Below are positions 16,146 through 62,500 of a stretch of 64,000 nt of DNA, one piece after another; positions within the stretch are counted from its first letter, which is position 1; each line of letters opens with the position of its first letter. The position numbers and the translations under genes are program-made. The notes beneath the pieces were generated by a model, which did no database searches, was not told where the DNA came from, and was given only the letters and a program-made list of their open reading frames with translations. Source of the DNA: Candidatus Methanomethylophilaceae archaeon (GTDB lineage: Archaea; Thermoplasmatota; Thermoplasmata; Methanomassiliicoccales; Methanomethylophilaceae); assembly GCA_944320495.1 (NCBI GenBank), contig CALUHR010000013.1:352001-416000 (forward strand), written 5' to 3'.

Positions 16146-16239
16146 CTTGATCGGGGGTCCATGCCCCTCGACCTATTAGGGTCCATCGTCCGTCGCAATC
16201 TGCTTATATCGCAAACTGGTTAAGCGGTCACTTAATGGG

Positions 16240-17040
16240 ATGAACGGCATGGACGACATCGCGGAGGATCTGAGGGTGGTGTCGGACGGGACGAGGTTCT
16301 CGATCCTGGCCATCCTCCTCAGGCACGACATCTGCTCCGGGGCCCTGGCACGCAGGCTGGGGATATCCGAGGCGGCCGTGTCCCAGCACATGAGGGTGCT
16401 GAGGGAGGCCGGTTTCGTCACTCCCGTCCGCCGCGGGTACTTCACCCACTACGAGGTGGACCGCGACAGGATCCGCATGCTGGCACATGCTCTGGAGGCC
16501 ATGTCCCTGAGCGACCGCGCCCCATGCGACCCGGTCCTCGAGGGATGTGACAGGAAGGGCCGCGGGAGCTGCCGGTCGGCGGTCCCCGGTGCCGGATGTC
16601 CCAGGATGGAGGGCGGTGAGCCCCCTTGCCCGGGGTGCCGCCGCTGCATGACAGAGAGAAGGTCGGGAATCATGAGGGTAGCAGCCACATACGAGAACGG
16701 GGAGGTCTTCCAGCACTTCGGGAGGACGCAGCAGTTCAAGGTCTACGATATCGAGGACGGGAGGGTGGTCTCGTCCGCGGTCCATGGGACCGGCGGCAGG
16801 GGTCACGGCGAGCTCATCAATGTGCTGAGGGAGCTCGATGTCTCCGCGCTCATCTGCGGGGGCCTCGGGGGCGGTGCGATGCAGGGGCTCGAGGCTTCGG
16901 GCATACGTGTCGTGCCGGGATGCTCCGGGGATGCGGACGCCGCCGTGCAGGCGTTCGCCGAGGGGAGGCTGGAGGGACCCACGGGGCCCACCTGCGACCA
17001 CCACGGCGAGGGTCACCAGTGCTCCTGCGGGAGGCACCGA
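16240..17040 (+). CDS. ArsR-family HTH + Cys-rich linker + NifB/NifX-like domain in one frame (ends at CGA 17038-17040)
   Basis: ISEAAVSQHMRVLREAG; QHFGRTQQF, LICGGLGGGA; HHGEGHQCSCGRH tail. Confidence 0.75.
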
Positions 17041-19239
17041 TCGCCCGTAGAACGGGACCGAGTCCCAGCCGGTGCGGCGCCTCCTTATGCGCCGGCCGGC
17101 GTCCTCGTACCCGTCCATGACCTCCTTGGTCACGGACGGCATCACGAGCCCCAGCGCCGCATCGAAATGACGCTGGCACACCTTCGCGGCCCCGGGGTCC
17201 TCGCGGTAGGCGGCCAGTCCCGCCTCGCGGCACACCGAGGCGAGGTCCGCGCCGGTGTAGCCGTCGGTGGACCTCGCGACCGCATCCAGGTCCACGCCGT
17301 CCAGAGGCATCCTCTTTGTGTGCACCGCCAGTATGCTCCTGCGGGCCCTCTCGTCGGGCTTCCCCACGAGGACGAGCCTGTCGAACCTGCCGGGCCTCAG
17401 CAGGGCCGGGTCTATCATGTCCGGGCGGTTGGTGGCGCCCATGACGGTCACGTTGCGCATGCCCTCGACCCCGTCCATCGAGGTGAGGAGCTGGGCGACG
17501 ACCCTCTCCCATGCGGAGCCGTCCCCCGCTCCGCGGATGGGGGCGATCGAGTCCAGCTCGTCGAAGAATATGATGCAGGGGGCCATCTGCTTGGCCCTCT
17601 TGAAGATCTGACGGATGGCGCGCTCGCTCTCGCCCATCCACTTGCTGGCCATCTCGGGACCGTTGACCGAGATGAAGTTGGTCCCGGACTCGTTGGCCAT
17701 CGCCTTCGCTATCAGGGTCTTGCCGGTCCCGGGCGGTCCGTAGAGCAGGACCCCCTTCCCCGGCTCGATGCCGAGCCTCTCGCAGGGGTTGCCCTCCTCG
17801 GTGGACAGCACCTCGCGGATCTGCGCCCTCACATCGTCCAGGCCCCCGACGTCCTCCCAGGTGACCTTGGGGATCTCGACCAGCACCTCGCGCATGCCAC
17901 TGGGCTCCACGTCGGACAGCGCAGCCCTGAAGTCGTCCATGGACACGCGCATGCTCTCGAGGATCTCCGACGGGACCTTCCGGTCCAGGTCGAACTCCGA
18001 CATGCGGGCGCTGAGGCAGTGCATGGCGGCCTCCCTGCAGAGGGCGGCCAGGTCGGCGCCCACGAAACCCTGGGTCATGGAGGCGAGCGCGTCCGGGGTG
18101 ACGTCCTCGGTCAGTGGCATCTCCCTCAGGTGGACGGAGAGGATGTCCGCCCTCGCCTTCCTCCCGGGAATCCCGACCTCGATCTCCCTGTCGAACCTTC
18201 CAGGGCGTCTCAGCGCCGGGTCGATGGAGTCCTCCCTGTTGGTGGCGCCGATGACTATGACGTTCCCCCTGTCCCCGAGGCCGTCCATCAGGGTGAGGAG
18301 CTGGGCCACCACCCTGCGCTCCACCTCGCCAGAGACCGCGTCCCTGCTGGGGGCGATGGAGTCTATCTCGTCCAGGAACACGATGCTGGGTGCGCTCTCC
18401 TCCGCCTTCTTGAATATCTCCCTCAGGCGCTCCTCGCTCTGGCCGTAGTACTGGCCCATGATCTCCGGTCCGCGGACCGAGAACAGGGTGGCGCCCGACT
18501 CGTTGGCGACCGCCTCGGCCATGAGGGTCTTCCCTGTGCCGGGCGGTCCGTAGAGGAGTACGCCCCTCGGGGCCCCTATGCCCAGGCGCTCGAAGAGCTC
18601 CGGATGCTTCAGGGGGAGCTCTATCATCTCACGGATGCGCTTCAGCTCGTCATCCAGGCCGCCCACGTCGTCATAGGTGATCTGATGGCCGGTCTGGCTC
18701 TTCGCCGTCTCACGCTTGCGGGGACCGTCCCTGACGACAACCTTGGTGGATTCCGTGACGATGACCGGTCCCTTCGGGACGGTGGATGCGACCGAGAACG
18801 TGGAGCGGTTGCCCATGAGGGCGATGTTCGGCACGATGATGTCCGTGTCCGCCACGAGGGGGCGGTTGAGGAGCCCCCGGAGGAAGATCTCCTCGATCCC
18901 GTCCTCGAACCTGATGCGCTTGCCCTCGGGGATGTTCGGGGAGAGGACGACCTGCTCGGCGGGGGCGGGGTCGCATCTCCTCACGGTGACGCTCTCGTCC
19001 ACGCTGACCCCCGCGTTGGTCCTGGTGAGGCCGTCTATCAGCAGCAGGCCGCGGCCCTCGTCCGTCTGGTCGCCCTTGAAGACCTTGGCGACGACGGTGC
19101 GCTTCCCGACGATCTCGATGGTGTCCCCCAGCTCCAGACCGAGGGCCCTGCGGGACTCGGAGTCCATCCTAGCCCTCCCATATCCCGCCTCGGACTGGGA
19201 CCTGGCCATCGCGACTTTCAGGACGATCGAATCGGACAT
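17041..19239 (-). CDS. cdc48: CDC48/VAT AAA+ ATPase, 732 aa (ends at CGA 17041-17043)
   Basis: Two GPPGTGKT Walker A motifs, [20 protein letters not shown]; FYG (HbYX) directly before CGA. Confidence 0.95.
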
Positions 19240-49822: not shown

Positions 49823-49899
49823 GCCCGCGTGGGGTAGCTTGGATATCCTGTGAGATTGCGGATCTCTTGACCCGGGTTCGAATCCCGGCGCGGGCACCA
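49823..49899 (+). tRNA. tRNA-Arg(GCG)
   Basis: GCCCGCG/CGCGGGC acceptor stem, loop TTGCGGA, TTCGAAT, encoded CCA. Confidence 0.93.
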
Positions 49900-60179: not shown

Positions 60180-61226
60180 TCAGCAGATTCTGGGCACGGG
60201 GTCGCCCGCGGGCGGCTCCAGGATGCGCCTGCCACCGACCTCGGTCCTGAGGACGACCCTCTCCGGTCCGTCCACGGCATGGCCGATGATGGCCGCATCC
60301 TTGCCCTCGGGGGTGGACCTGATGGCCTTGAGCACCTCGTCCGCCATCTCCGGCACGACGCCAATCACGCATTTCCCTTCGTTGCCAATCGCCAGCGGGT
60401 CTATTCCCAGCAGTTCGCATGCGTTGACGACACCGTCCCTCAGAGGGATGGATGGGTAGTCGATCTCCATGCCGACGTGGGACTTGGAGCACCACTCGTT
60501 GAGGGTGTTCGCCAGACCTCCCCTGGTCGGGTCCTTCATGGCCACTATGCCCCCCGCGGTCAGTCCCTTGGCGATCATCTTGTTCAGCGGTGCAACGTCG
60601 CTCTGGACCTCGCTGTCGAAGCCGTAGCCCTCGCGGAAGGAGAGCAGCGCGATGCCGTGGTCGCCGACGTATCCGGACACGATGATGGCGTCGCCGGGCC
60701 TGACGTTGGAGTCGGTGCACCAGCGGTGGTCCACCTTCCTGTACTCCGCGGCCTTGGCCAGGTCGCTGTCCAGAAGGTCGGATCTCTTTCCGACGGCGGC
60801 GGTGGACATGACCATCTGCTCCACTGCGCCTGCCTCCACGACCTTGGTGTCGCCGGTCGCTATGGGCACTCCCGCGCCCTCGGCGGTCCTGCCCATGGAG
60901 TCCATGACCCTGTCGACGATGTCGACGTCCAGCCCCTCCTCCATTATGACGGAGCAGGCCAGAGCGAGGGGGGTGGCCCCCATGACGGATATGTCGTTCA
61001 CGGTGCCAGCCACGGAGATCTTGCCGATGTCCCCTCCGGGGAAGAACAGCGGCTTCACGGTGTGCCCGTCGATGGTGAAGACGATGTCGTCCACGACGGC
61101 GGAGTCGTCCATGGAGTCGAGGGGGACCTCGGCGTCCATCTTCGGGAAGTGCTTCGTGATGTGGTCGGAGAGGAACTGCTGCATGAGCTCCCCGCCGGCT
61201 CCGTGGTTGAGAATCACCTTGGGCAT
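60180..61226 (-). CDS. hypE: Hydrogenase maturation protein HypE
   Basis: HGAGG, PLFFPGGDIG, GDTKVV, KDPTRGGL, NEGK, PRIC C-terminus. Confidence 0.96.
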   Translation of the reverse strand: MPKVILNHGAGGELMQQFLSDHITKHFPKMDAEVPLDSMDDSAVVDDIVFTIDGHTVKPLFFPGGDIGKISVAGTVNDISVMGATPLALACSVIMEEGLDVDIVDRVMDSMGRTAEGAGVPIATGDTKVVEAGAVEQMVMSTAAVGKRSDLLDSDLAKAAEYRKVDHRWCTDSNVRPGDAIIVSGYVGDHGIALLSFREGYGFDSEVQSDVAPLNKMIAKGLTAGGIVAMKDPTRGGLANTLNEWCSKSHVGMEIDYPSIPLRDGVVNACELLGIDPLAIGNEGKCVIGVVPEMADEVLKAIRSTPEGKDAAIIGHAVDGPERVVLRTEVGGRRILEPPAGDPVPRIC

Positions 61227-61316
61227 GGGACGGTGGATTCGGGAGACGGCATATACTGGTTTCCCAGGGGACCTTGAGGCAATCCGTTAATTATGTGGTA
61301 GATAATCGAGACGGCG

Positions 61317-61388
61317 GGCCCTGTGGGGTAGCGGATATCCCGTCAGATTTCGGCACTGACAATCCGGGTTCGATTCCCGGCAGGGCCG
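61317..61388 (+). tRNA. tRNA-Arg(TCG) with atypical anticodon arm
   Basis: GGCCCTG/CAGGGCC acceptor stem, A20, anticodon TCG at 61350-52; A31.A39 mismatch and C38; CCA not encoded. Confidence 0.85.
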
Positions 61389-61397
61389 CCTGTTTCT

Positions 61398-61895
61398 TCA
61401 TTCGCCGGTGTACTTGCCGACGGTCTTGCAGTGGGCGAGCACGTGCCCGTCCATGGCGAAGTACAGGTCGTTGAGCCTGAAGCCGCTGGGCAGTCCGAGC
61501 TCGGTGTCGAGTGCGTAGACCTTCAGGGTGTACCTATGCATCCCGTTGGGCGGGGCCATGCCGCCGTATCCGGTGGCCTGCTCCCTCGTCAGTCCTCCGA
61601 GCGCGCTGAACCAGCTGTTGGAGCCCTCGGTGAATCCGGCGCCGGTGCGGGTGGCCCCCTCGGCGACCTCCGTCTCCTTGAGATCGCAGATGAGCCAGTG
61701 GACCCAGAGGAACCCGGCTGCGGAGACGGCGTCGTAGTCGTCGAGGATGACGGCGAAGCTCTTCGTGCCCTCGGGGGCGTCCTCGATCCTGAACCCGGGG
61801 GAGATCCCGGGCATGCCGTTGTGGTCGGCGGAGCCCTTGCATCCGTACTCGTTGCCGAACCATCCGTCCCTGATGGCGCTGCAGACGACCCTCAT
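61398..61895 (-). CDS. YbhB/YbcL PEBP-family protein
   Basis: DDYDA, WVHW, YGGMAPP, HRYTLKVYALD. Confidence 0.9.
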   Translation of the reverse strand: MRVVCSAIRDGWFGNEYGCKGSADHNGMPGISPGFRIEDAPEGTKSFAVILDDYDAVSAAGFLWVHWLICDLKETEVAEGATRTGAGFTEGSNSWFSALGGLTREQATGYGGMAPPNGMHRYTLKVYALDTELGLPSGFRLNDLYFAMDGHVLAHCKTVGKYTGE

Positions 61896-61896
61896 C

Positions 61897-62421
61897 TCAG
61901 GCGCCCTCGTAGATGATCAGGGAGTCGACGTCGTATCCTTTGAGCTTGTCCCTTCCCTTGAGACCGGCGAGCTCCATGACGAACCCGATCTTGACGACCT
62001 TGCCGCCCTCGCGCTCGACCATCTTGATGATGGCCTCGGTGGTCCCGCCGGTGGCGATGAGGTCGTCGATGATGACGACGCGCTGACCAGGCTTGATGGC
62101 GTCCTTATGCATCTCCAGGGTGGCGGTGCCGTACTCGAGGTCGTAGTCCTCCGAGATGGTCTCCCTCGGGAGCTTCCCCTTCTTCCTCACGAGGATGAAC
62201 CCCTTGCCCATGGTGTATGCGACCGGGGTACCGAAGATGAATCCCCTGGACTCGGACCCCACCACGAGGTCGAAGTCGAGCCCCTTCATCATGTCGACGA
62301 GGCCGTCGATGGCCAGTTTGAGGCCTTCGGCGTCGCTCATTATCGTCGTGATGTCTCTGAATATGATTCCCGGTTTGGGGAAGTCCGGAATGCTGGTGAC
62401 GTAGTCCCTGAGCTCCTTCAT
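61897..62421 (-). CDS. apt: Adenine phosphoribosyltransferase
   Basis: [30 protein letters not shown]. Confidence 0.96.
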
Positions 62422-62500
62422 GAATATGTGAAGAATGATGCGGAATTAAGCTTTCGTAGAATCCAAGAAGACCCCTGAGAGGGTAAGGTGTTTGTCGCGG

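Follow-up and report, generated by a model that had tools for sequence, protein, structure and literature searches.

Background

Changes of the genetic code are usually explained by the loss or mutation of a tRNA. Arginine codons have been lost from coding sequence, and left open to recapture, in vertebrate mitochondria (AGA and AGG) and in Mycoplasma capricolum (CGG, unassigned); the cognate tRNA is absent from those systems, whereas in the genome of the archaeal methanogen from chicken gut described here it is retained, conserved and altered. In bacteria, the prfB gene for release factor 2 (RF2) contains an in-frame UGA through which its expression is autoregulated and which requires a +1 frameshift. 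A Codetta screen reported no sense-codon change in Archaea, neither an archaeal CGA stop nor work on CGA usage in Methanomethylophilaceae turned up in literature searches, and no report of release-factor autoregulation of the prfB kind in Archaea was found. In yeast, eRF1 releases at CGA in competition with tRNA-Arg, and a single terminal CGA is detectably read as a stop (Wada and Ito 2018, PMC7379694). In yeast such release is only a minor side reaction, at a codon that is decoded poorly, whereas in the present genome CGA would end about one gene in seven.

The covariation of positions 32 and 38 and the opposition of positions 31 and 39 are held to adapt the anticodon to the tRNA body, and the loss of U33 from elongator tRNAs is exceptional, the best known case being Candida tRNA-Ser(CAG), an agent of code change (PMC5041475). 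This Candida tRNA carries G33 and takes CUG from leucine to serine, and nine C33 genomes of the genus considered here (g1) resemble it in having an elongator tRNA without U33 amid what appears to be a change of code. It differs from the tRNA-Arg(UCG) studied here in that it brings a new amino acid, whereas the latter keeps U33, lacks the 31:39 pair and is the established cognate tRNA for a codon that seems to be turning into a stop. Bacterial tRNAs commonly (5.6 %) have one terminal stem pair unpaired, and an A31·A39 opposition need therefore not impair function (PMC13092985). In the Blastocrithidia type of tRNA with a 4-bp anticodon stem the top pair is open, the loop has 7 nt and the near-cognate stop UGA is read better; tRNAs unpaired at the bottom of the stem lie outside the scope of that study (PMC13092985). 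An earlier note, made from the letters of this DNA, had drawn an analogy with this tRNA, and the analogy is a loose one. One open terminal anticodon-stem pair and a change in what is a stop are common to both, but in the archaeal tRNA the bottom rather than the top pair is open, the loop may reach 9 nt, the tRNA is cognate rather than near-cognate to the codon concerned, and reading would be weaker. Since the described cases of terminal unpairing are open at the top and read more, we infer the weaker reading here rather than adopting it from them.

The tRNA-Arg(UCG) gene and its anticodon arm

The window is the whole stretch of 64,000 nt that was analysed. The features of the tRNA gene, and the tRNA used as comparator, are as follows.

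61287..61294, + strand: TATA-like box TTAATTAT, 23-30 nt upstream of the 5' end of the tRNA
61317..61388, + strand: tRNA-Arg(UCG) gene, 72 nt to the discriminator G73 (ARAGORN; Rfam RF00005, full length)
61343..61359, + strand: anticodon arm, with A31·A39 unpaired
61343-61347, + strand: stem 27-31, UCAGA
61348-61354, + strand: loop U32 U33 U34 C35 G36 G37 C38
61350-61352, + strand: anticodon
61355-61359, + strand: stem 39-43, ACUGA
49823..49899, + strand: tRNA-Arg(GCG), comparator, with A31-U39, A38 and an unpaired U27·U43

ARAGORN called the stretch 61317-61388 as tRNA-Arg(tcg), and Rfam model RF00005 matched it over its full length with 55.7 bits (gathering score 29), more than the 53.8 bits of the neighbouring tRNA-Arg(GCG). 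The identity bases of arginyl-tRNA synthetase, A20, C35 and G36, are all present, and the initial reading of an arginine tRNA with anticodon TCG was borne out by the sequence and by ARAGORN. The 3' end has no encoded CCA and is followed by CCT. A contig from an RNA library of an independent chicken-gut sample spans 61258-61445 with 0 differences to the window, so the form of the anticodon arm is no assembly error; the contig is of low depth with possible DNA carry-over, and such contigs speak to the sequence and cannot show transcription, ends or level. RNA-library contigs cover the gene in one run, and in other runs they end inside or beside it.

A canonical arm has five stem pairs, a 7-nt loop and U33. 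In the window's tRNA U33 is kept, and A31 (61347) and A39 (61355) are left open, a pair flagged as non-standard by Rfam; position 38 (61354) is C. G26 is able to pair with C44, and RNAfold applied to positions 26-44 gave a 5-bp stem (26-30/40-44) with a 9-nt loop at -3.5 kcal/mol, accounting for 84 % of the ensemble; of the isolated-arm predictions only this one was used, those for canonical versions being dominated by a possible cUUCGg tetraloop. The A31·A39 mismatch, C38 and the potential 9-nt loop had been noticed beforehand, and all three hold. Canonical tRNA-Arg(UCG) loops read C32-UUCG-G37, for which RNAfold gives a possible and very stable cUUCGg tetraloop in isolation, and the U32 of the window's tRNA (61348-61353 region) abolishes the C-G closing pair of that tetraloop.

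Among the 45 tRNAs of the genome the 31:39 mismatch is confined to tRNA-Arg(UCG). The tRNA-Arg(GCG) has the normal A31-U39 and A38, as had been described, but also a mismatch of its own at U27·U43. The set of arginine tRNAs is complete with all five members, including a tRNA-Arg(CCG) with a canonical arm (contig C5:127659-127734), for which the earlier note had proposed a search, and tRNA-Arg(UCG) is the only member of the genome's set that can pair with CGA. Genome-wide, tRNA-Trp, tRNA-Tyr and tRNA-Pyl were not found by ARAGORN run without intron search, and a 99-nt 'tRNA-Met' (C5:195669-195767) probably contains an intron.

CGA within genes and at gene ends

The use of CGA in this genome was examined with local-context tests. 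Six-frame ORF counts with CGA as a stop were uninformative, as antisense ORFs are rich in CGA in a GC-rich genome, and the first homology-based codon counts were contaminated by antisense pairs (CGA against GGA) and by shared upstream DNA. The middle parts of ORFs are strongly depleted of CGA. By local coding context under a self-trained codon model, with crude gene calls, 6 of 143 CGA codons in the cores of long ORFs had coding context on both sides (CGG 56 %, CGT 68 %). CGG is still used, with about 235 codons in coding context in gene cores. By the same model, the coding score changed from +0.62 to -0.57 past the first late CGA of a gene and was negative in 82 % of cases, whereas past nine control codons it stayed positive, with 6-24 % negative. 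Under a strict test coding stopped at CGA in 156 of 1261 genes, and the median tail from such a CGA to the next standard stop was 15 codons. The +4 base after a coding-ending CGA was T in 59 % and A in 6 % of cases, against T at 15 % of first codon bases; TGA stops lacked a +4 T bias (T 29 %). In 23 of the 77 cases in which a relative's homologue has its standard stop while the frame of this genome continues, a CGA lies at most 2 codons away. These counts support the view that CGA has all but disappeared from gene interiors and ends about 12-15 % of genes (about one in seven).

Eight CGA codons in the whole genome have coding on both sides. They comprise an SIS|HAD junction, an FMN_red|FMN_red junction, the end of Cdc48, probably an ankyrin gene, two unknown proteins and two truly internal codons, which are those of release factor aRF1 and ribosomal protein L18e. 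It is quite unlikely that CGA is simply a very rare sense codon, its gene ends artefacts of gene calling and tRNA-Arg(UCG) an ordinary tRNA of low use. The codon model is home-made, the control codons likewise yield some 'terminal' events in the test of CGA-ended share, and aRF1 has no change at its decoding site, all of which would suit such a reading; against it, the collapse of the score is specific to CGA, T is in excess at +4, alignments place CGA at the stops of relatives, in-frame junctions fall on CGA, and the aRF1 gene is itself enriched in CGA. If CGA does act as a stop, standard annotation would over-extend roughly 1-17 % of genes in these gut methanogens, depending on the species.

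Two of these cases may be described further. The Cdc48-like AAA ATPase ORF in the window (16228-19239, - strand) has 1002 codons by the standard code; the first CGA late in it falls on codon 733 (about 17041-17043), roughly where archaeal Cdc48 ends, with weaker coding continuing in frame. On contig C13 (193618-194700, - strand; L185) an SIS domain (GmhA-like) and a HAD domain (GmhB-like, 'AVFIDRDDT') lie in one frame with a single CGA between them, and the junction codon is also CGA in genome G136; either the first gene stops at this CGA and a second one starts after it in frame, or the two domains form a fusion that needs read-through.

Conservation of the gene within the genus

An orthologue of tRNA-Arg(UCG) was found in 48 of 62 g1 genomes, the majority of the remainder being incomplete, and every complete g1 genome checked has the gene. 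The view that it had been lost in some species, including two complete genomes, came from BLAST with a 74-nt query and from a first search pattern and was dropped, a covariance model having recovered the gene in all five of the genomes checked in which the pattern had missed it, there with a longer D-loop and C33. All 48 orthologues have UCG as anticodon, and in all 48 the anticodon arm is abnormal, none being canonical. In thirty-nine, U33 is kept and 31:39 is mismatched (A·A in 19, C·A in 19 and U·C in 1), the mismatches sitting on four covarying versions of the stem (TCAG, CTAG, TTGG and TCGG). The other nine have C33 in place of U33, a paired 31:39 and A37, and eight of these nine also have C38 and a 27:43 mismatch. 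The combination U32/C38 is found only in this genome and in G018, whose tRNA is 100 % identical. Pairing of the acceptor and T stems is complete (100 %) in the 13 distinct g1 sequences; double-sided (compensatory) changes occur at three pairs of the acceptor stem, one of the T stem and three of the five of the anticodon stem, and 31:39 is unpaired in 11.

The surroundings of the gene are conserved as well, the two anchors of synteny being the following.

60180..61286, - strand: conserved gene of 368 aa, upstream anchor (tblastn 72-92 % identity)
61897..62445, - strand: conserved gene, putative apt, downstream anchor (tblastn 66-87 % identity)

By tblastn, the 368-aa gene adjoins tRNA-Arg(UCG) in both g1 types of the tRNA and in genera g10, g13, g14, g16 and g17, and a homologue of the downstream gene is beside it in g1, g10, g13 and g17. 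A TATA-like box precedes the tRNA in all 16 orthologues inspected (the window, nine others from g1 and six from other genera), in the 15 others as TTATATC/TTTATC-like forms at the same distance as in the window.

The earlier note had offered decay after reassignment of CGA as one of three readings, and this one fails on the invariant UCG, the synteny, the TATA-like box (10 of 10 g1 orthologues checked) and the compensatory changes in three stems. That the gene is a decaying pseudogene left behind by the loss of CGA is very improbable: the abnormal arm and the near disappearance of CGA from genes would be in keeping with it, but fold, promoter, conservation and anticodon have all been retained, with 55.7 bits and compensatory changes. 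The comparisons point instead to a working gene under purifying selection, which is predicted to function; this forms part of an overall explanation to which we give somewhat better than even chances.

Comparison outside the genus

The spread of CGA loss was estimated from samples of about 40-140 kb per genome, in which CGA is nearly absent from genes in g1, g10, g11, g13, g14, g16 and g17 and is used normally in g12, g15, g34, g36 and g38 and in families f2, f6 and f7. Outside g1, 43 tRNA-Arg(UCG) genes were compared, from eleven further genera of this family and from three other families; U33 is present in all of them, and 31:39 is always a Watson-Crick or G·U pair. The earlier note had let its case turn on whether relatives that use CGA share the 31:39 pattern, and such relatives have the normal pair, a result in favour of the weak CGA reader among its readings. 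The anticodon stem is perfect in 39 of the 43, and the four exceptions, all in CGA-poor genera, have C28·A42 in g17 (L048, L049) or C27·A43 in two g10 species (L070, L071). No stem mismatch was seen in the 18 orthologues from other families and from those f1 genera that do not belong to the CGA-poor set; within this group of 18 the use of CGA itself was tested in f6 and f7 only. The arms of the CGA-poor sister genera g10, g11, g13, g14, g16 and g17 are mostly canonical, and the lesion is therefore secondary and not the cause of CGA loss. The purge of CGA is older and wider than the lesion of the arm, which is a secondary, genus-specific step.

The share of genes that end at CGA was compared with the type of arm in 16 genomes, which are phylogenetically non-independent and were analysed with crude gene calls.

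This genome, A·A on a TCAG stem: 12-15 %
G010, A·A on a CTAG stem: 17 %
G009, A·A on a TCAG stem: 14 %
G018, A·A on a TCAG stem: 8 %
A·A genome with a TTGG stem: 6.7 %
Genome with U·C: 6.4 %
Genomes with C·A: 0-3.9 %
Genomes with C33: 0.9-3.1 %
Canonical arm, four genomes: 0-3.6 %

The highest shares go with A31·A39, and the share does not track the lesion cleanly, so that the relation serves as a lead only. U32/C38 was considered as a mark of the lineage richest in CGA stops and rejected, G010 and G009 having C32/A38 with 14-17 % of genes ended by CGA.

A minority prospect, though one of real weight, is that the arm reflects neutral drift in a little-used tRNA, a 31:39 mismatch or C33 having been fixed by chance under relaxed selection with little effect. 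Terminal unpairing is common and is more frequent in tRNA species of low abundance (PMC13092985), four orthologues in CGA-poor sisters have their own stem mismatches while the 18 from outside the CGA-poor set have none, and the relation of lesion to CGA-ended share is not clean. Drift fits less well with an abnormal arm in every one of the 48 orthologues, free of reversion and involving three mismatch types on four covarying stems, or with the visible constraint on the anticodon, on the remaining four pairs of its stem and on the other arms; elongator tRNAs, moreover, almost never lose U33 (PMC5041475).

In-frame CGA codons of aRF1 and L18e

The two genes with truly internal CGA codons lie outside the window.

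Contig C2:85933-87195 (L183:501-1763), - strand: aRF1 gene, in-frame CGA at residue 78
Contig C13:191557-191910 (L239), - strand: L18e gene, CGA at codon 29 ('IW-R-DVA')

Residue 78 of aRF1 is the arginine of the conserved 'RLK' that follows NIKS, within Pfam domain eRF1_1; the frame is continuous across the CGA, the domain spans the codon, and there is no +1 frameshift. All 10 congeners compared have CGA here, in each case with C as the next base. At least one CGA is present in the N domain of 35 of 35 aRF1 genes from the CGA-poor genera, usually exactly one, at codon 78 in g1, 25 in g10 and g14, 25, 78 or 99 and 105 in g11, 11 (sometimes with 78) in g13, 11 in g17, and 9 or 50 in g16, so that seven or more different codons are occupied. 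More distant genera, CGA users among them, have 0-4 such codons without a pattern. Because an internal CGA occurs only about once per 10^4 to 10^5 codons in CGA-poor genomes, the CGA of the aRF1 N domain is an extreme enrichment, and it is one with turnover of position. A clade-specific change in domain 1 of aRF1 that would explain recognition of CGA was looked for in the CGA-poor genera, and none was found; the only residues that differ are S175 and H178, beside GGQ.

In all 30 genomes compared, which belong to seven genera, codon 29 of L18e is CGA, while neighbouring synonymous sites vary; in this genome the base that follows is G, compared with C after the CGA of aRF1. The L18e codon is also kept in genera with normal use of CGA and may therefore serve another purpose.

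Both genes bear on the remaining two readings of the earlier note, restriction of the tRNA to CGG and weak reading of CGA. Restriction to CGG is compatible with the data, but it is not needed given tRNA-Arg(CCG) and leaves the CGA codons of aRF1 and L18e unexplained. It is accordingly unlikely that tRNA-Arg(UCG) has given up CGA and now works solely or chiefly, by U34·G wobble, as a second reader of CGG, with the in-frame CGA codons handled in some other way. The CGG codons still in coding context would give such a tRNA work, and changes at 32 and 38 can shift wobble preference (general knowledge; PMC5041475); on the other side stand the canonical tRNA-Arg(CCG) and the fact that CGA, which can pair with no other tRNA of the genome, has to be read at conserved arginine positions of aRF1 and L18e. 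Of the three readings the weak reader of CGA fits best, with the in-frame CGA codons of aRF1 and L18e as its likely clients.

A model of competition at CGA

Taken as a whole, the comparative evidence slightly favours a tRNA-Arg(UCG) that is detuned but maintained, kept for its client CGA codons and competing with aRF1. In this model CGA, purged from coding sequence, would act as a context-dependent terminator, mostly as CGA-U, while at least two essential genes retain a conserved in-frame CGA at arginine positions (aRF1 codon 78 and L18e codon 29). The retention of the tRNA would be explained by its being the sole reader of these codons. It would be charged with arginine, and at each CGA it would compete with aRF1. 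The open 31:39 pair, or C33 in the other branch of g1, would lower its performance in the A site, and with the tRNA weakened, CGA at gene ends would terminate while the sentinel codons could still be read. A CGA outcome set by competition with the tRNA side weakened is the simplest model of the sequence comparisons.

The in-frame CGA of aRF1 may, by analogy with prfB, be a feedback sensor: low aRF1 activity would lead to more read-through and hence to more aRF1. Both genes have a conserved early in-frame codon on which the factor appears to act, and in both a shortage of the factor would favour the full-length product. Unlike prfB, the aRF1 gene has a continuous frame without a +1 frameshift, and the CGA would be read by a cognate tRNA. 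More tentatively, and at a little less than even chances, CGA may carry a dual meaning in a free-living archaeal lineage, as a stop at gene ends and as arginine at sentinel positions, with the balance set by a weakened cognate tRNA and a self-sensing aRF1.

If true, this would be the first sense-to-stop change outside organelles in which the cognate tRNA is still present and, for Archaea, the first feedback loop of this type in a release factor. The lineage may be an intermediate, in which CGA is gone from genes and ends many of them while an altered cognate tRNA and two client codons persist. It would make testable how a sense codon can become a stop without killing the cell, whether a release factor of ordinary sequence reads CGA once the tRNA is weak, and whether a release factor can regulate itself through a sense-like codon.

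Further features of aRF1 and L18e

In L18e, the codons GCT 25, CTT 33 and AAA 37 are unusually conserved rare codons, and an RNA-level element is possible. The CGA of aRF1 lies amid a patch of otherwise rare codons (ATA, GCT, AAA). Beside the GGQ motif of aRF1 ('SKHHQGGQ'), S175 and H178 are present in the CGA-poor genera and also in the CGA-using g12 and g15 (L189-L238), whereas R/G and R occupy positions 175 and 178 in the family's more distant genera.
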